44,385 nucleotides of DNA, from the sequence record NC_008152.1. One strand, written 5' to 3'. Made by a program: the position numbers and the translations under genes. The stretch comes from Escherichia phage K1-5. Position 1 is the first letter of the stretch; every line of letters starts with the position of its first letter. Shown one piece after another: positions 1-44,385 of the stretch. The notes beneath the pieces were generated by a model. That model made no database searches. It saw only the letters and a program-made list of their open reading frames with translations, and was not told the DNA's origin.

Positions 1-234
1 TCGCCCTCGCCCTCGCCGGGTTGTCCCCATAGGGTGGCCTGAGGGAATCCGTCTTCGACGGGCAGGGCTGATGTACTCCTTGTCTAGTACAAGGGAGGCG
101 GAGGGAACGCCTAGGGAGGCCTAGGAATGGCTTAGTGGTGGACAAGGTGATTACCTTAGTGAAGCCTCTTAGTGCATTCCTGAGGCCATTCAGGGCGTTT
201 ATGAGGGATTGACAGGGTGTGAGGGCGTGGGCTA
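1..234. repeat. Left direct terminal repeat (234 bp), identical to 44152..44385
   Basis: First 234 nt (tcgccctcgccctcgccggg...gagggcgtgggcta) recur exactly at the right end in the same orientation; typical terminal redundancy of T7-like genomes. Confidence 0.95.
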
Positions 235-237
235 TCT
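209..237 (+). promoter_or_regulatory. Candidate host sigma70 early promoter (TTGACA -35, weak -10)
   Basis: TTGACA at 209..214, 17-bp spacer, ctatct/tatctg -10-like; weak -10. Confidence 0.25.
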
Positions 238-608
238 GTTCCTTTGCTCCTCACTTCGTTCGTCGCTGCGGTAGCCTGATGTGTACCTTAGGTTATTCCT
301 TGATGGATAGCTTAGGTTAGCCTTAGTGGATTACCTTAGTTAAAGCCTTAGTGCTTCACTTAGTATCAGCTTAGTAGTGTACCTTAGTAAGTCTTAGTGT
401 CTTCTCTTAGTGATTGCACATGCAAGCATGTAAGATGCTAATAGGTCGCGGTCGGCAGACCGCTAAAGAAAGAGAATGGTAATAAGATGCAGTAGGAGGA
501 ACACCAGAAGCCTAGCCAACCTAAGCTATCCTAGCTCTATATCTATTGCTTTTCCTTAGTCTAACACGTTAGACAACCTATCTTATTCTTAGTGATGGTA
601 ACTTAGTG

Positions 609-637
609 TTGACAAGATAATCTTAGTGTAATACTAT
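609..637 (+). promoter_or_regulatory. Candidate host sigma70 early promoter
   Basis: TTGACA 609..614, 17-bp spacer, TACTAT 632..637; upstream of first early ORFs. Confidence 0.4.
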
Positions 638-780
638 GCATCACGTAGGCGGTGCTGAGGCACCTAGTAGCCAGCTAGTAAGGCATACGAAGAGACTAGC
701 GCTTACATTGCTCTTTAACAATTTGCTTAGTGTAACCTATGTATGCCGTGGTTAACTACTTATTGAATGAGGTATTAACT

Positions 781-960
781 ATGACATTAAATAACCGTGA
801 ACTGTCCGTTCTCTTCACTCTGTTGTGCTACATGATTCGTAACAACGAATTACTTACAGATGATGAGTTAGCCTTGTATCACCGCTTTCTTAACGAAGGT
901 TGGACCGATACAGTTAATCAATACCGTAACATGATAGATGAGTTGAGGGAGGGTAAATAA
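781..960 (+). CDS. Hypothetical early protein (59 aa; track ORF begins 739)
   Basis: ORF track 739..960; GAGG RBS 9 nt before ATG 781; stop overlaps next start (TAATG). Confidence 0.4.
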   Translation: MTLNNRELSVLFTLLCYMIRNNELLTDDELALYHRFLNEGWTDTVNQYRNMIDELREGK

Positions 961-1184
961 TGTATCAACATGAGGTATTCTTTGAATCAGCTAGCGAAGC
1001 TATTCGCTTCCGTGATGATATGATGCAAGCTGGTGTAGGCGTTGATGTGTATCACTATTTGATAGATTACGACACTGAATATCACCGAGTTACCTTAGTA
1101 TCTGAGTATGACAACCAAGTCATTACTGAGTATCTAGGCAGTGAAGATTACGATTACGATGAAGTAATCACGACAAATCTCTAA
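960..1184 (+). CDS. Hypothetical acidic early protein (74 aa)
   Basis: ORF with GAGGGAGGG RBS upstream of ATG 960; Asp/Glu/Tyr-rich. Confidence 0.5.
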   Translation: MYQHEVFFESASEAIRFRDDMMQAGVGVDVYHYLIDYDTEYHRVTLVSEYDNQVITEYLGSEDYDYDEVITTNL

Positions 1185-1192
1185 ATTAACTG

Positions 1193-1221
1193 TTGACAGC
1201 CACGGCATACAAGGTTACATT
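1193..1221 (+). promoter_or_regulatory. Candidate host sigma70 early promoter
   Basis: TTGACA 1193..1198, 17-bp spacer, TACATT 1216..1221. Confidence 0.4.
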
Positions 1222-1574
1222 AAGCATCAAGACGGCGACGTCTTTAAACATCCCGCTCTTTAACAATACGGTTTGTGTCTTGATAGGCTAACTAACTAAC
1301 TAAGGTAATTATCATGAAAGGGTTAATTTGTGTAGAACGTATGGTCAATGGTAAACTTGAAATATTACCACTGGAAAACCAATCTAGCTTCAAAGAGTGG
1401 TATGGCTGTTTCTCACTGATTTAAGGTAAAGGCTGGCACTAGTCAGCCTATCAAGGCGCAAACCAAGCTCTTTAACAATTTGGATGGTAGCTTCTTAGTC
1501 TGGATAGGTTAAACCTAGGAGATTCTCTTGAGTCTCCTATAATGTAACCTAACTAACTAAATGAGGATTAAATC

Positions 1575-1907
1575 ATGGAACGCAATGCTAACGCTTACTA
1601 CAACCTTCTGGCTGCAACTGTTGAAGCATTCAACGAGCGTATTCAGTTTGATGAGATTCGCGAAGGTGATGATTACTCTGATGCACTACATGAGGTTGTA
1701 GACAGCAATGTTCCAGTTTATTACAGCGAAATCTTTACAGTGATGGCTGCTGATGGTATTGATGTTGATTTTGAGGATGCTGGTTTGATTCCTGACACGA
1801 AGGATGTAACCAAGATTCTACAAGCTCGCATCTATGAAGCTCTTTATAATGATGTACCAAATGACAGCGATGTAGTTTGGTGTGAAGGCGAAGAAGAGGA
1901 AGAATAA
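1575..1907 (+). CDS. Ocr-like DNA-mimic anti-restriction protein (T7 gp0.3 homologue)
   Basis: 110 aa, very acidic, ends EGEEEEE; segment VPVYYSEIFTVMAADGIDVDFEDAGLIPDTKDVTKILQARIYEAL closely parallels T7 Ocr as I recall it; GAGGA RBS. Confidence 0.75.
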   Translation: MERNANAYYNLLAATVEAFNERIQFDEIREGDDYSDALHEVVDSNVPVYYSEIFTVMAADGIDVDFEDAGLIPDTKDVTKILQARIYEALYNDVPNDSDVVWCEGEEEEE

Positions 1908-2013
1908 GGATGGAAAAGCAATATAACTTTATCTTTTCAGACGGTGTAACCCTGAAGTGTTCCCTACGATTCGCACAAATTCGTGAGGAAGTACTAGGCA
2001 CTACATACAAACT

Positions 2014-2034
2014 ATTTAGCTGACACTATAAGAG
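2014..2034 (+). promoter_or_regulatory. Degenerate phage-RNAP promoter-like site
   Basis: atttagctgacactataagag; deviates around +1. Confidence 0.25.
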
Positions 2035-2099
2035 AAGGCTTAACAAGGCGTTACTAAGGTAGCGCCTGATTAAACTTTCACTTACTAGGAGTTGAGATT

Positions 2100-2288
2100 A
2101 TGAAAACCTTGATTGGATGCTTCTTGTTGGCTTCTCTTGCTCTGGCATTTACCGCTAAAGCTGGTTATGACGCTTATAAAGTAGAACAAGCCCAGCAAGA
2201 CTGGGCCAAAAAAAAGTTCAACTTGTGCAGCAAGAGCAACACCTACGAGTACTGCAACAAAACACTAAGACACTTATGGAAAGAGTAA
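2100..2288 (+). CDS. Small secreted protein (62 aa) with N-terminal signal peptide
   Basis: AGGAG RBS; MKTLIGCFLLASLALAFTAKA looks like a Sec signal peptide (AKA cleavage site); mature part has 2 Cys. Confidence 0.5.
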   Translation: MKTLIGCFLLASLALAFTAKAGYDAYKVEQAQQDWAKKKFNLCSKSNTYEYCNKTLRHLWKE

Positions 2289-2352
2289 CTAGCCTATAGC
2301 CCACCTGAGTGGGCTATGTGATATTTACTTAACACTATATAAGGTGATTACT

Positions 2353-3237
2353 ATGACTACTGAAAACACCCTCGTGTCTGTCCGTGAAGCTGCAACCGCT
2401 GAAATCAAGCAACATTTAGACAATATCGGCACTTCTTACATCAAAGTAGGGGCTTGTCTGAATGAGTTACGCGGAGACTTTGAAGGTCAAAAAGAGTTTT
2501 TAGCCTATGTTGAAGCAGAGTTTGCCATTAAGAAGGCACAATGTTACAAGCTGATGAGTGTAGCCCGTGTCTTTGAAGGCGATGATCGCTTTAAAGGCGT
2601 GGCGATGCGTGTAATGCTGGCGCTTGTTCCTTTCGCTGATGAAAATATAATCATGGAGAAGGCCGCAGAACTCGCCGCAAATGGCAAGCTGGACACTAAT
2701 GCCGTAAACGCCCTGATTGAACCTAAGAAAGAGTCAAAGGCCGAAACGGTACAATCTAAGGCTGAGACAGTAAAACCGCAGGAGAACGCGACTGAGTCCG
2801 CAGAATCACATGAAATGCAAGCGCCGCAGGTAGTGCCACCCGCGAGCGAGCAGGAGTCCGACGAATCAGCACCTTGGGAAGAGGAAAGCAAACCGGAAGC
2901 GCCAAAGGCAGCTCCGATGGATAACACGGCTAATACTGAGAATGCCGCTATTGCTGGTCTGCTGGCACAAATTAAAGCACTGACTGAGCAATTACAGGCA
3001 GCCAATGACCGCATCGCCTCCTTAAGTAGCGCACGCGAAAGCAAGAAGGCATCCGCACCTATGCTGCCGCAGTTCAAATCTTCCTGCTTCTACGCTCGCT
3101 TAGGCTTGAGCGCGGAGGAGGCAACGAAGAAAACAGCAGTTAACAAGGCACGCCGCGAACTGGTTAAGCTGGGATACGGTGAAGGCCATGAGGCATGGCC
3201 CTTAATCTCTGAGGCAGTAGAAGAGTTGACTAAGTAA
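2353..3237 (+). CDS. Hypothetical early protein (294 aa) with acidic low-complexity linker and C-terminal coiled coil
   Basis: Track ORF 2344 (GTG); ATG 2353 has AAGGTG RBS; SKAETV-type repeats in the middle. Confidence 0.6.
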   Translation: MTTENTLVSVREAATAEIKQHLDNIGTSYIKVGACLNELRGDFEGQKEFLAYVEAEFAIKKAQCYKLMSVARVFEGDDRFKGVAMRVMLALVPFADENIIMEKAAELAANGKLDTNAVNALIEPKKESKAETVQSKAETVKPQENATESAESHEMQAPQVVPPASEQESDESAPWEEESKPEAPKAAPMDNTANTENAAIAGLLAQIKALTEQLQAANDRIASLSSARESKKASAPMLPQFKSSCFYARLGLSAEEATKKTAVNKARRELVKLGYGEGHEAWPLISEAVEELTK

Positions 3238-3300
3238 CCTTATCGGTGGCATCTTCTTAGGTGTCACCTATTAAGGTTTCTTTCACTAGGAGTAAACAAG

Positions 3301-5928
3301 ATGCAAGGCCTACACGCTATTCAACTTCAACTTGAAGAAGAAATGTTTAACGGCGGTATCCGTCGCTTTGAAGCGGACCAACAACGCCAGATTGCATCCG
3401 GTAATGAATCAGACACGGCATGGAATCGCCGCTTATTGTCCGAGTTAATCGCGCCAATGGCTGAAGGTATTCAGGCATACAAGGAAGAGTATGAAGGTAA
3501 AAGAGGCCGTGCACCGCGTGCATTAGCTTTCATTAACTGCGTAGAAAACGAAGTGGCAGCATATATCACGATGAAAATCGTTATGGATATGCTGAACACG
3601 GATGTAACCTTGCAGGCTATAGCCATGAATGTAGCTGACCGCATTGAGGACCAAGTACGTTTTAGCAAGCTGGAAGGTCACGCCGCCAAATACTTTGAAA
3701 AAGTTAAGAAGTCACTTAAGGCAAGTAAGACTAAATCATATCGCCATGCGCACAACGTAGCGGTAGTGGCTGAGAAGTCAGTAGCTGACCGTGACGCTGA
3801 TTTCTCCCGCTGGGAGGCATGGCCTAAAGACACCTTGCTGCAAATTGGGATGACCTTGCTTGAAATCTTAGAGAATAGCGTATTCTTCAACGGGCAACCT
3901 GTCTTCCTCCGCACCTTGCGCACTAATGGCGGCAAACATGGTGTTTACTACCTACAGACTAGTGAACACGTAGGTGAGTGGATAACTGCATTCAAAGAGC
4001 ACGTAGCGCAACTGAGTCCTGCCTATGCTCCTTGCGTCATCCCTCCGCGTCCGTGGGTATCACCTTTTAACGGCGGTTTCCACACTGAGAAAGTAGCAAG
4101 CCGTATTCGTCTGGTAAAAGGAAACCGCGAACACGTCCGCAAGCTGACCAAAAAGCAAATGCCAGAGGTTTACAAGGCTGTTAACGCGTTGCAGGCGACT
4201 AAATGGCAGGTTAACAAGGAAGTTTTACAGGTTGTGGAAGACGTCATCCGTCTAGACCTAGGTTATGGTGTACCTTCCTTTAAACCACTCATTGACCGCG
4301 AGAACAAGCCAGCTAATCCAGTGCCGCTAGAATTTCAGCACCTACGGGGCCGTGAACTGAAAGAAATGCTTACGCCGGAACAATGGCAAGCCTTTATCAA
4401 CTGGAAAGGTGAATGTACTAAGCTGTACACCGCTGAAACTAAGCGCGGAAGCAAATCGGCGGCAACCGTTCGCATGGTTGGTCAGGCCCGTAAATATAGC
4501 CAGTTCGACGCAATCTACTTCGTGTATGCACTGGACAGCCGCAGCCGCGTCTACGCGCAATCTAGCACACTCTCACCGCAATCAAATGACTTGGGCAAGG
4601 CCTTGCTCCGTTTTACCGAAGGGCAGCGTCTTGATAGCGCTGAGGCGCTTAAGTGGTTTTTGGTGAACGGGGCTAATAACTGGGGTTGGGATAAGAAAAC
4701 TTTTGACGTGCGCACCGCTAACGTGCTGGATAGTGAATTTCAAGACATGTGCCGCGACATTGCAGCGGATCCGCTGACCTTCACTCAATGGGTAAATGCC
4801 GACTCCCCTTACGGCTTCCTTGCATGGTGCTTTGAATATGCGCGTTATCTGGATGCACTGGATGAAGGCACGCAAGACCAATTCATGACGCACCTCCCAG
4901 TCCATCAAGATGGTAGTTGTTCTGGTATCCAGCACTACAGTGCTATGCTACGCGATGCAGTAGGTGCGAAAGCAGTAAACCTTAAGCCCTCTGACTCTCC
5001 TCAAGATATTTATGGTGCCGTTGCGCAGGTAGTAATTCAGAAGAATTATGCATACATGAATGCAGAGGATGCGGAAACCTTCACTTCTGGCAGCGTGACT
5101 TTAACAGGTGCGGAGCTGCGTAGTATGGCTAGTGCGTGGGATATGATAGGAATCACTCGCGGCCTGACCAAAAAGCCCGTAATGACACTACCTTATGGCA
5201 GCACACGTCTAACCTGCCGTGAGTCAGTGATTGATTATATCGTTGATTTAGAAGAAAAAGAGGCCCAACGGGCTATTGCGGAAGGGCGTACCGCCAATCC
5301 TGTACACCCTTTTGATAATGACCGTAAAGACAGCCTGACACCTAGCGCAGCTTATAACTATATGACAGCTTTAATCTGGCCTTCTATTTCGGAAGTGGTT
5401 AAAGCCCCTATAGTGGCAATGAAAATGATTCGTCAGCTTGCCCGTTTCGCAGCTAAAAGGAATGAAGGCTTAGAGTATACCCTGCCTACTGGCTTCATCT
5501 TGCAACAAAAGATTATGGCTACTGATATGCTCCGCGTATCTACTTGCTTGATGGGAGAAATCAAGATGAGTCTACAGATTGAAACAGACGTAGTGGATGA
5601 AACGGCAATGATGGGCGCTGCTGCTCCTAACTTTGTGCATGGTCATGATGCCAGCCACCTTATCTTAACAGTCTGCGACCTTGTTGATAAAGGGATTACA
5701 TCTATCGCAGTTATTCATGACTCTTTTGGCACTCATGCAGGCCGTACAGCCGACCTTCGTGATAGCTTAAGGGCAGAAATGGTGAAGATGTATCAAGGCC
5801 GTAATGCACTGCAAAGCCTGCTAGATGAGCACGAAGAACGCTGGTTAGTTGATACCGGAATACAAGTACCAGAGCAAGGGGAGTTTGACCTTAACGAAAT
5901 CTTAGTTTCAGACTATTGCTTCGCATAA
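3301..5928 (+). CDS. T7-like single-subunit DNA-directed RNA polymerase
   Basis: 875 aa; [16 protein letters not shown] (motif A), IHDSFGTHA (motif C), C-terminal ...DYCFA; AGGAG RBS. Confidence 0.97.
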
Positions 5929-5936
5929 TATTAATA

Positions 5937-5966
5937 GGCCATTCCTTCGGGAGTGGCCTTTCTTTT
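5937..5966 (+). terminator. Hairpin with UUCG-type loop plus T-run just after the RNAP gene
   Basis: ggccattcc-ttcg-ggagtggcc followed by tttctttt. Confidence 0.55.
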
Positions 5967-6001
5967 ACCTACTACCTGTAACATTTCATTAACATAAAAG
6001 T

Positions 6002-6017
6002 GTCTCACATGTGAGAC
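6002..6017. promoter_or_regulatory. 16-bp perfect palindrome GTCTCACATGTGAGAC (copy 1)
   Basis: Read directly; immediately upstream of promoter 6020. Confidence 0.6.
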
Positions 6018-6019
6018 TT

Positions 6020-6040
6020 ATTTACCGGACACTATAGGAT
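6020..6040 (+). promoter_or_regulatory. Phage RNAP promoter (early-type variant)
   Basis: atttaccggacactataggat; 2 nt downstream of a 16-bp palindrome. Confidence 0.6.
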
Positions 6041-6081
6041 AGCCGTCGGAGACGGGAAAGAAAGGGAAGATAAAGGATATA

Positions 6082-6140
6082 AAGGAAGTAATAGGTATTA
6101 AAGGTTATATAGGTTATCTAGGAATACCTATTACCTTCTT
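6082..6140. other. AT-rich dyad element (candidate primary replication origin)
   Basis: 12-bp inverted arms gtaataggtatt (6088..6099) and aatacctattac (6123..6134) flanking aaaggttatataggttatctagg; lies between two phage promoters after the RNAP gene. Confidence 0.4.
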
Positions 6141-6182
6141 CCTTCCTCTTATTACCACTCAGAGGAAGGGCAGACCTAGGTT

Positions 6183-6198
6183 GTCTCACATGTGAGAC
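6183..6198. promoter_or_regulatory. 16-bp palindrome GTCTCACATGTGAGAC (copy 2)
   Basis: Read directly; upstream of promoter-like 6204. Confidence 0.6.
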
Positions 6199-6203
6199 TT
6201 CGT

Positions 6204-31007: not shown

Positions 31008-31037
31008 AAGGCTTGTCTCACATGTGAGACAGGTCTT
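31008..31037. promoter_or_regulatory. Extended hairpin around palindrome copy 5
   Basis: aaggcttGTCTCACATGTGAGACaggtcttt; between gp15-like and gp16-like genes. Confidence 0.6.
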
Positions 31038-43914: not shown

Positions 43915-43975
43915 CAGGTTAATATCTTAGTATAAACAAGGGCAGACTTAGGTTTGTCCTTAGTGTATTCCAAAG
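43915..43975. repeat. Three CTTAG(T/G) repeats immediately left of the right terminal repeat
   Basis: tcttagtat, acttaggtt, ccttagtgt at about 43925, 43946, 43958. Confidence 0.5.
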
Positions 43976-43983
43976 GAGGTAAC

Positions 43984-44112
43984 ATGCTGAAAGATGGTTG
44001 GGTTTCATATGACCCTACAGACCCTAAGAATTGGCTACAGGTTATCGCTATAGCTTGTGCAGGTAGCCTATTGGCTGCCCTGATGTATTCATTATGGATG
44101 TACACAAAGTAA
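43984..44112 (+). CDS. Small membrane protein (42 aa) at right genome end
   Basis: AAAGGAGG RBS 5 nt before ATG; VIAIACAGSLLAALMYSLWM is a TM helix; ends about 40 bp before the terminal repeat. Confidence 0.4.
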   Translation: MLKDGWVSYDPTDPKNWLQVIAIACAGSLLAALMYSLWMYTK

Positions 44113-44151
44113 CCAAAGTCAAAATTTTGATGTAGGCGTGTGTCAGCTCTC

Positions 44152-44385
44152 TCGCCCTCGCCCTCGCCGGGTTGTCCCCATAGGGTGGCCTGAGGGAATC
44201 CGTCTTCGACGGGCAGGGCTGATGTACTCCTTGTCTAGTACAAGGGAGGCGGAGGGAACGCCTAGGGAGGCCTAGGAATGGCTTAGTGGTGGACAAGGTG
44301 ATTACCTTAGTGAAGCCTCTTAGTGCATTCCTGAGGCCATTCAGGGCGTTTATGAGGGATTGACAGGGTGTGAGGGCGTGGGCTA
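44152..44385. repeat. Right direct terminal repeat (234 bp)
   Basis: Exact copy of 1..234 read by eye; window ends exactly at the repeat end. Confidence 0.95.

Follow-up and report, generated by a model that had tools for sequence, protein, structure and literature searches.

What is the role of a 13-nucleotide sequence, GCTCTTTAACAAT, that recurs in the early region of Escherichia phage K1-5? The DNA considered here – the whole 44,385 nucleotide (nt) stretch of record NC_008152.1, hereafter the window – is the genome of an SP6-like podophage of the genus Vectrevirus (the K1E group); its genes run left to right and its first 3 kb are 95% identical to the best public matches. An original prediction, made from the sequence alone, suggested that the repeats and the short hairpins near them may be sites at which RNase III processes early messenger RNA (mRNA). 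Our analysis points to another identity. The repeats are boxA elements of the type found in the ribosomal RNA (rRNA) operons (rrn) of the host, candidate loading sites for NusB/S10, and two of the three are followed by long-range RNA helices that bracket small early genes. The early operon of the phage appears to be built like a miniature rRNA operon.

Evidence for the identity of the repeat came firstly from its sequence. Exactly three copies are present, all on the + strand (boxA#1 to boxA#3, Table 1), and 100 dinucleotide-preserving shuffles yielded no exact match. The positions first given (about 713, 1254 and 1468) were close to the true starts, and the accompanying claim that each copy occupies an intergenic gap between early open reading frames (ORFs) holds good: the first copy precedes ORF 781-960, the second separates 960-1184 from 1314-1424, and the third separates 1314-1424 from an ocr-like gene. 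All three are identical, at 13 of 13 nt, to the boxA in the leader of the E. coli rrnB operon (L001, 367-379), which is flanked by the boxB hairpin and boxC and comes after promoter P2 of rrnB; the boxA of the rrnB 16S-23S spacer is 1 nt different. The consensus GYTCTTTAANA, derived by Baniulyte et al. for functional gammaproteobacterial BoxA elements (PMC5725501), matched only these three sites when both strands of the 44 kb were searched. The boxA motif itself is of a known kind.

The placement of the copies is in keeping with this identity. Every copy has a sigma70-like promoter upstream of it, and the first promoter for the phage-encoded RNA polymerase (RNAP) comes only after all three. 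Matches to the phage-RNAP promoter sequence TTANNTNACACTATA number ten on the + strand, none of them before 2016, and therefore all boxA copies are carried on RNA made by the host enzyme alone. T7-type RNAP, it has been reported, makes no use of Nus factors (PMC5725501). The two host promoters, P1 and P2, come from a consensus scan and their starts are predicted, not mapped; the segment around P1 (599-794) is conserved even in Proteus phages, and the -35 hexamer of P2, TTGACA, is present in 12 of the 13 sequences of the alignment (A1) used below for the first helix, SP6 having TTGACT. On these grounds the three 13-mers are rrn-type boxA elements, and candidate NusB/S10 loading sites, on early transcripts of host RNAP.

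A central issue is the structure to which each boxA is attached. In the minimum free energy (MFE) fold of the transcript from P1 (645-2100) the strongest elements are two long-range helices, A and B, and boxA#1 and boxA#2 sit just outside them: helix A starts 2 nt, and helix B 3 nt, after the last base of the 13-mer, with 1-2 unpaired nt between. The partner strands lie 170-500 nt downstream of these boxA copies and close loops of 145-445 nt, within which the small early ORFs are held. The duplex energy of helix A is -48.3 kcal/mol, as against -24.0±2.4 for shuffled 5′ strands (z score -10.3); that of helix B is -39.8 kcal/mol, as against -19.8±2.2 (z -9.3). A sliding duplex test of the whole genome ranked helix A 3rd and helix B 20th of 2200 segments. 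Because energy-only ranking of this sort is confounded by GC-rich regions, we turned to contiguous-helix evidence, by which helix B stands first among the inverted repeats of the genome, and to covariation.

RNAalifold found both helices independently, and both recur in relatives with other sequences. Covariation was assessed for helix A in alignment A1 and for helix B in alignment A2, each of 13 sequences. Standard pairs occupy 95.6% of the cells of helix A and 97.5% of those of helix B, whereas sliding the register left only 25-41% and 23-43% paired; compensatory changes affect 10 of 28 pairs in the former and 8 of 22 in the latter. On each of five measures the observed covariation was reached by none of 500 shuffles, for either helix. 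Swapping strands between phages weakened helix A from -44.9 kcal/mol (cognate) to -24.7 and helix B from -37.8 to -26.0. G.U pairs outnumber A.C mismatches in the helices by 45 to 9, which fits pairing of the + strand RNA. Helices A and B are real, covarying RNA duplexes. An inverted repeat acting at the level of DNA, as a protein-binding site, was considered and rejected, given the excess of G.U over A.C and the 145-445 nt that separate the arms.

The 3′ strand of helix A (1198-1226) has a further property: it overlaps P2, running from the final base of the -35 hexamer through the spacer and the -10 hexamer and on over the bases that lead to the start. Both strands of helix A are therefore present only on read-through RNA from P1.

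Table 1. Features of the early region of the window, and positions of the boxA core in other phage genomes
Feature	Genome	Position	Strand	Remarks
Predicted host sigma70 promoter P1	window	609-637	+	TTGACA-17-TACTAT, 10/12 consensus matches; predicted start ~644-645
boxA#1	window	710-722	+	~66 nt after predicted start of P1
Helix A	window	724-738 x 1212-1226, 740-753 x 1198-1211	+	29 bp, single bulged A739
Small early ORF	window	781-960	+	PHROG 9275, function unknown; inside loop of helix A
Small early ORF	window	960-1184	+	PHROG 6403, function unknown; inside loop of helix A
Predicted host sigma70 promoter P2	window	1193-1221	+	TTGACA-17-TACATT, 10/12 consensus matches; predicted start ~1228
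Hairpin AAGACG-GCGA-CGTCTT	window	1229-1244	+	-7.0 kcal/mol, z -2.6; between P2 start and boxA#2 (boxB-like position)
boxA#2	window	1255-1267	+	~27 nt after predicted start of P2
Helix B	window	1270-1289 x 1445-1464, 1291-1294 x 1440-1443	+	20 + 4 = 24 bp
36-aa ORF	window	1314-1424	+	inside loop of helix B; no match in PHROG search
Hairpin AGGCUGGC-ACUA-GUCAGCCU	window	1431-1450	+	8 bp; 42-nt segment -14.2 kcal/mol, z -2.5
boxA#3	window	1467-1479	+	exact 13-mer; starts 2 nt past 3′ strand of helix B
Long irregular local hairpin	window	1491-1566	+	~26 bp with internal loops; between boxA#3 and ocr-like gene
ocr-like anti-restriction gene	window	1575-1907	+	PHROG 2568, E 2.6e-51; first gene after the third module; copies in relatives annotated Ocr
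First phage-RNAP promoter	window	2016-2030	+	match to TTANNTNACACTATA; downstream limit of RNA made by host RNAP only
Single-subunit RNA polymerase gene	window	3301-5928		followed by terminator-like hairpin 5936-5959
Core GCTCTTTAACAA	SP6	656, 926	+	
Core GCTCTTTAACAA	K1E	894, 1663, 1975	+	
Core GCTCTTTAACAA	Proteus phage PM93	514, 1358	+	
Core GCTCTTTAACAA	Lelliottia phage phD2B	707, 990, 1612	+	
Core GCTCTTTAACAA	Klebsiella phage cp4	913, 1570	+	
Core GCTCTTTAACAA	Pectobacterium phage PhiM1	730	+	
Core GCTCTTTAACAA	T7	813	+	downstream of promoters A1-A3; visible too in published T7 fragment

One further feature of the predicted folds involves boxA directly. In the 1.4 kb MFE fold the CUCUUU of each boxA (707-712, 1257-1261 and 1468-1473) was paired with GAAGAG-type codons at 1893-1922, which specify the acidic C-terminal tail of the ocr-like gene product. 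The complementarity is recurrent and the long-range pairing weak; it is probably an artefact of global folding.

The geometry of the two helices is that of rRNA precursors. The leader-trailer helices of rRNA are substrates of RNase III, with lengths of 25-40 base pairs (bp) for 16S and 27 bp for 23S. When the duplex test used for the phage was applied to rrnB, the 16S leader-trailer helix was found to start 1 nt after the boxA 13-mer, with 39 pairs and an energy of -56.6 kcal/mol, and to enclose 16S; at the spacer boxA the strand that starts 1 nt later pairs with the 23S trailer, a pairing that carries less weight on account of its large internal loops. In phage and rrn alike a promoter comes first, then an optional hairpin, boxA, the 5′ strand of the helix, the cargo and the 3′ strand, with another boxA after it; in both the long-range helix starts 1-3 nt after boxA and encloses the genes downstream. 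The phage helices, at 24-29 bp, overlap or approach the 25-40 bp range, helix A (29 bp) falling inside it and helix B (24 bp) just under. The differences are nonetheless clear: the phage cargo consists of small protein-coding genes, not rRNA; the loops measure 145-445 nt, as compared to 1.6-3 kb in E. coli; and one phage 3′ strand doubles as a promoter (P2). The boxC consensus UCUGUGUGGG was also absent downstream of the phage boxA copies, where only a UGUGU stretch in helix B was seen. Because the geometry matches that of the rrnB leader-trailer helix, processing by RNase III is plausible at the long duplexes.

Would the box and its neighbouring hairpin not serve equally well as the RNase III site, as originally suggested? 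The precedent is real: the early RNA of T7 is cut by RNase III at intergenic structures, the copies of the 13-mer are intergenic, and two of them do have small hairpins upstream (1229-1244 and 1431-1450, z about -2.5). Yet the 13-mers lie outside the helices (ending at 722 and 1267, as against helix starts at 724 and 1270) and are identical to a known single-stranded protein-binding motif; the hairpins are of 6-8 bp, compared to 25-40 bp for leader-trailer helices, and alone are just marginally more stable than shuffled sequences; the first copy has no such hairpin; and that at 1229-1244 is missing from several relatives. We give hardly any credence to the box and short hairpins as the processing site itself. 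What may still hold is the broader part of the suggestion – that intergenic structures are processed as in T7 – at duplexes A and B and at a third structure, the hairpin at 1491-1566, none of which figured in the original prediction.

The small hairpins deserve brief comment in their own right. In relatives that at 1229-1244 has GGGA or GAGA loop variants (often of the GNRA type) or is lacking. Variability of this kind is consistent with the dispensability reported for boxB in rrn, where the role of boxC is unclear. The hairpin at 1431-1450 adjoins and partly overlaps the 3′ strand of helix B, and its stem, as read from the alignment, is kept in relatives by coordinated changes (CTGGC/GCCAG, GCCAGC/GCTGGC and CTTGC/GCAAG). 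That it provides a protective 3′ end after cleavage is speculation.

The third boxA is followed by a structure of a different kind. For the segment after boxA#3 the duplex test found no long-range partner (z 0.4); there is instead a local hairpin, which begins 11 nt past the box and folds with an energy of -31.4 kcal/mol (z -4.5, reached by 0 of 200 shuffles). Ten relatives fold alike, with a lower stem, an internal loop and an upper stem, the sequences of the upper stems being quite different. Alignment of this third module from the ten relatives with MAFFT, followed by RNAalifold, gave no consensus structure, the variable upper stems being misaligned; because automatic alignment is too poor, support for the hairpin comes from per-sequence folds and not from formal covariation. 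The early RNase III sites of T7 are local intergenic hairpins of about two helical turns with internal loops, and the hairpin at 1491-1566 is of this form, as the hairpins of 6-8 bp are not. A scan of positions 1-6200 against Rfam at permissive E-values returned chance-level matches only, the database having no family for boxA or for T7 RNase III sites.

Comparison with T7 itself is telling. The same 13-mer is present in the T7 early leader at 813-825, followed by a local hairpin and then by the ocr gene, which is the order of the third module, and in both phages the upper stem has on its 3′ side a similar stretch, UAUAAU/UAUGAU. In T7 the hairpin that separates the boxA sequence from gene 0.3 is the classical R0.3 RNase III site. 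The RefSeq record of T7 does not annotate boxA; a boxA-like sequence in the early leader was reportedly noted long ago. T7 and T7-like contigs nevertheless differ from the window: they have one boxA with no long-range partner (z > -3.2), whereas the window has three, two of them tied to long-range helices that bracket genes.

The mechanism that we envisage draws on what is known of rRNA transcription. There, boxA is necessary and sufficient for the recruitment of NusB-S10 and for assembly of the rRNA antitermination complex (rrnTAC), which resists Rho, elongates at ~2x the speed and keeps the 5′ portion of the growing transcript fixed next to the RNA exit channel. It has been proposed that boxA, anchored by NusB, keeps the 5′ strand near that channel until the trailer emerges, and in a single-molecule assay a stable rrnTAC raised co-transcriptional cleavage by RNase III from 12% to 56% (~5-fold). 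By analogy, each nascent boxA of the phage would bind NusB-S10 and nucleate the host antitermination complex (NusA, NusG, SuhB and S4) on the polymerase, which in its modified state would be resistant to Rho and roughly twice as fast through an early region with long untranslated stretches. In T7-type phages early transcription by the host enzyme is believed to draw the phage DNA into the cell. The small genes would then be looped out between the duplex strands that follow boxA#1 and boxA#2, as are 16S and 23S in rrn; after boxA#3 the duplex would be a local hairpin of the T7 R0.3 type. The boxA-bound complex probably keeps the 5′ strand close to the exit channel until its 3′ partner appears, at which point the finished duplex is probably cut by RNase III, giving discrete early mRNAs. 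Finally, past each 3′ strand comes a new boxA, 28 nt from helix A and 2 nt from helix B, because, we suggest, cutting severs the tethered boxA upstream. Binding of Nus factors, antitermination, speed-up, tethering, RNase III cleavage and reloading are all features that we infer from the likeness to rrn. As to the explanation as a whole, in which rrn-type boxA, duplex and RNase III act together, we put its probability at about 0.7.

The duplexes could have a function that does not involve RNase III. Pairing of the flanks might stabilise or insulate the cassettes against RNase E or exonucleases, or time their translation, with boxA concerned solely with antitermination. The helices are real and covarying, and cleavage is inferred only, all of which is compatible with such a role; but at 24-29 bp they overlap or approach the helices that RNase III is known to cut (23S, 27 bp; 16S, 25-40 bp), the third module occupies the position of the known R0.3 site of T7, between boxA and the ocr homologue, and boxA recurs past each 3′ strand, as expected were the upstream boxA to be cut off. 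We consider duplexes that escape RNase III to be unlikely.

Several points weigh against the combination of boxA, duplex and RNase III that we prefer. Neither all copies nor all accompanying features are uniform: boxA#3 lacks its own promoter, the boxB-like hairpins upstream are variable or absent among relatives, and a third copy in SP6 (GATCTTTAACAAT, at 1536) is degenerate, as is a fourth in K1E (GCTCTTTTAACAAT), which has a 1-nt insertion. Because of these last two, not every boxA copy can be under strict selection. Ranked on energy and nothing else, helix B reaches only the top 1% of segments in the genome, and no terminator of the Rho-dependent kind was identified in the early region. 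Lastly, T7 mutants that lack the boxA region are reportedly viable, which suggests that boxA is not essential in T7.

An effect on translation is a further alternative. Repression of suhB depends on BoxA where the element is near the start codon of the gene (PMC5725501), and the phage elements might likewise recruit Nus factors mainly to repress the gene that follows. The intervals to the next ATG are 59 nt for boxA#1 and 47 nt for boxA#2, short enough to invite the comparison; that from boxA#3 to the ocr-like start, at 96 nt, is not. Moreover, no Shine-Dalgarno sequence lies beside boxA, the interval being filled by strands of covarying helices, and other phages carry the same boxA ahead of transfer RNA (tRNA) arrays, where there is nothing to translate. 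We judge translational repression to be very unlikely as the principal function.

Extension of the analysis to other phages showed the core of the motif, GCTCTTTAACAA, to be invariant, present on the + strand only and confined to the early leader in SP6, K1E, PM93, phD2B, cp4, PhiM1 and T7 (Table 1). Distant phages align to this region only as short islands at or beside boxA. Among relatives the order of the modules differs: where A and B denote the helix modules and the local hairpin comes last, the window has A-B-local, SP6 has B-A-local and K1E has A-B-B-local, and three contigs (L090, L139 and L133) are without B. Modules bounded by boxA are in this way permuted, duplicated or missing (SP6 656-1640, K1E 894-2350, L090, L133, L139), and the pattern suggests exchange of cassettes at boxA.

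Such exchange raises the possibility that the repeats are simply patches of homology for cassette recombination, or else decoys that draw NusB/S10 off the rrn operons of the host, with the polymerase on the phage genome left unmodified. The variation in order and number between relatives, and the presence of up to three boxA copies on one early transcript, could be read in this manner. Recombination, however, has no need of identity with the boxA of host rrn, or of a single strand downstream of host promoters; decoys leave unexplained the fixed gap of 1-2 nt between boxA and helix that is common to rrnB; and the core stays unchanged even among phages with flanks too divergent to be aligned. 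Identity with the host motif, confinement to one strand and constant spacing from the helix are accounted for by neither idea. Homology patches and decoys both seem to us very improbable as an account of the repeats, and loading of the host antitermination complex remains the reading that we favour.

Beyond the named phages, a scan of viral contigs recovered more than 120 with the boxA motif, including T7-likes, SP6-likes, phages with tRNA arrays and an abundant class with a hairpin and boxA; retrieval from viral contigs on the basis of RNAP gave only close relatives, at 84-100% identity. In contigs with arrays of 23-25 tRNAs a sigma70 promoter and an rrn-type boxA stand at the head of the array (L091, 6343-6445; L092, - strand, ~7981). 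In another contig, L107, a unit made up of promoter, hairpin (gctgagaaatcagc) and boxA occurs three times (4207, 4531 and 5540) ahead of 6 tRNAs, and in one of these units a ~31 bp duplex is formed with a partner strand ~780 nt downstream. In L014, L038, L052, L047, L085 and about 20 other contigs the hairpin aaaaaagcgccctacaggacgctt directly precedes GCTCTTTAACAATCTGG, with repeats of GGGGATATCCAGAT 500-650 nt downstream; this class looks prophage-like. An unrelated contig, L118, has on its - strand (5804 and 6108) a boxA and, after it, a long-range helix of 26 bp that shares nothing in sequence with those of the window, together with a module like that of helix B; the 3′ strand of the 26-bp helix falls inside a TTGACA-17-TATGAT promoter, just as that of helix A falls in P2.

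The elements also invite comparison with two other settings in which boxA is found. In lambda, nutL and nutR are, like those described here, RNA signals of the Nus-factor type placed early in a phage transcription unit, and NusB/S10 bind their boxA. In lambda, however, boxA is followed by boxB, to which the phage protein N must be bound, while the hairpins of the window lie upstream of boxA, as in rrn, and its boxA is the full rrn version. A lambda-type nut site was accordingly rejected, on the position of the hairpins and on the annotation of the early ORFs: PHROG assigned no antiterminator among them, in a comparison that included no search aimed at an N-like gene. The boxA elements of the suhB 5′ untranslated region (PMC5725501) and of the leaders of clustered regularly interspaced short palindromic repeat (CRISPR) arrays conform to the same consensus and protect or regulate poorly translated non-ribosomal RNA. 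These are single, and are without the attached long-range processing helix that is seen in the window.

Other repeats and hairpins were encountered in the course of the analysis. The heptamer CTTAGTG occurs 25 times in the genome, against 7.8±2.9 expected, and is dense on the + strand: 11 copies fall between 131 and 732, a stretch that takes in P1 and the DNA that precedes it, another 4 are found close to the right end (43959-44325), and one falls within the 5′ strand of helix A. Upstream of P1, in apparently untranscribed DNA, 305-321 and 515-531 form a 17-nt inverted repeat with 94% complementarity. Just before the second phage promoter (2325), a 10-bp hairpin (2295-2318) that resembles a terminator, its T tract being weak, may be an attenuator for host RNAP or an element of RNA stability within the early region. 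Just past the terminator of the RNAP gene the perfect palindrome GTCTCACATGTGAGAC occurs twice (6002-6017 and 6183-6198), with a related palindrome near 31.0 kb (31008-31037); these may be protein-binding sites.

A literature search that combined boxA with SP6, K1-5, T7-like, Autographiviridae and Molineuxvirinae, and whose coverage excluded the original SP6 and K1-5 genome papers, turned up no account of these elements. Within that scope we found no description of reiterated boxA elements combined with covarying, gene-bracketing helices of the leader-trailer type in SP6/K1E-type phages. The annotation of a conserved phage motif would accordingly shift, from a possible RNase III box to a candidate loading site for host Nus factors, and two previously unseen, strongly covarying long-range RNA helices are revealed.

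It is tempting to go further. In the fullest version of the argument the early operon of SP6/K1E-type phages is a complete structural mimic of an rRNA operon: reiterated boxA elements would load the rrnTAC on the polymerase that imports the genome, the 5′ strand tethered by boxA would meet the 3′ strand, protein-coding cassettes would be excised co-transcriptionally by RNase III, boxA would then reload the complex, cassettes would be shuffled between phages, and one 3′ strand would be written into the next promoter. This we put forward tentatively, as a possibility about which we are more doubtful than confident. Were it correct, one consequence of a 3′ strand within the next promoter is that processed read-through RNA and promoter-initiated RNA would start at nearly the same place. 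A virus would have taken over the entire scheme of the rRNA operon – tethering by boxA, looping, excision by RNase III and reloading – for the sake of protein-coding genes, and would offer, in ~0.9 kb, a compact system, not essential to the host, in which the role of the rrnTAC in RNA looping and as a chaperone, now under debate, could be tested. There would be a bearing also on how genome entry driven by the host polymerase avoids Rho, and on why boxA heads many phage early and tRNA operons.

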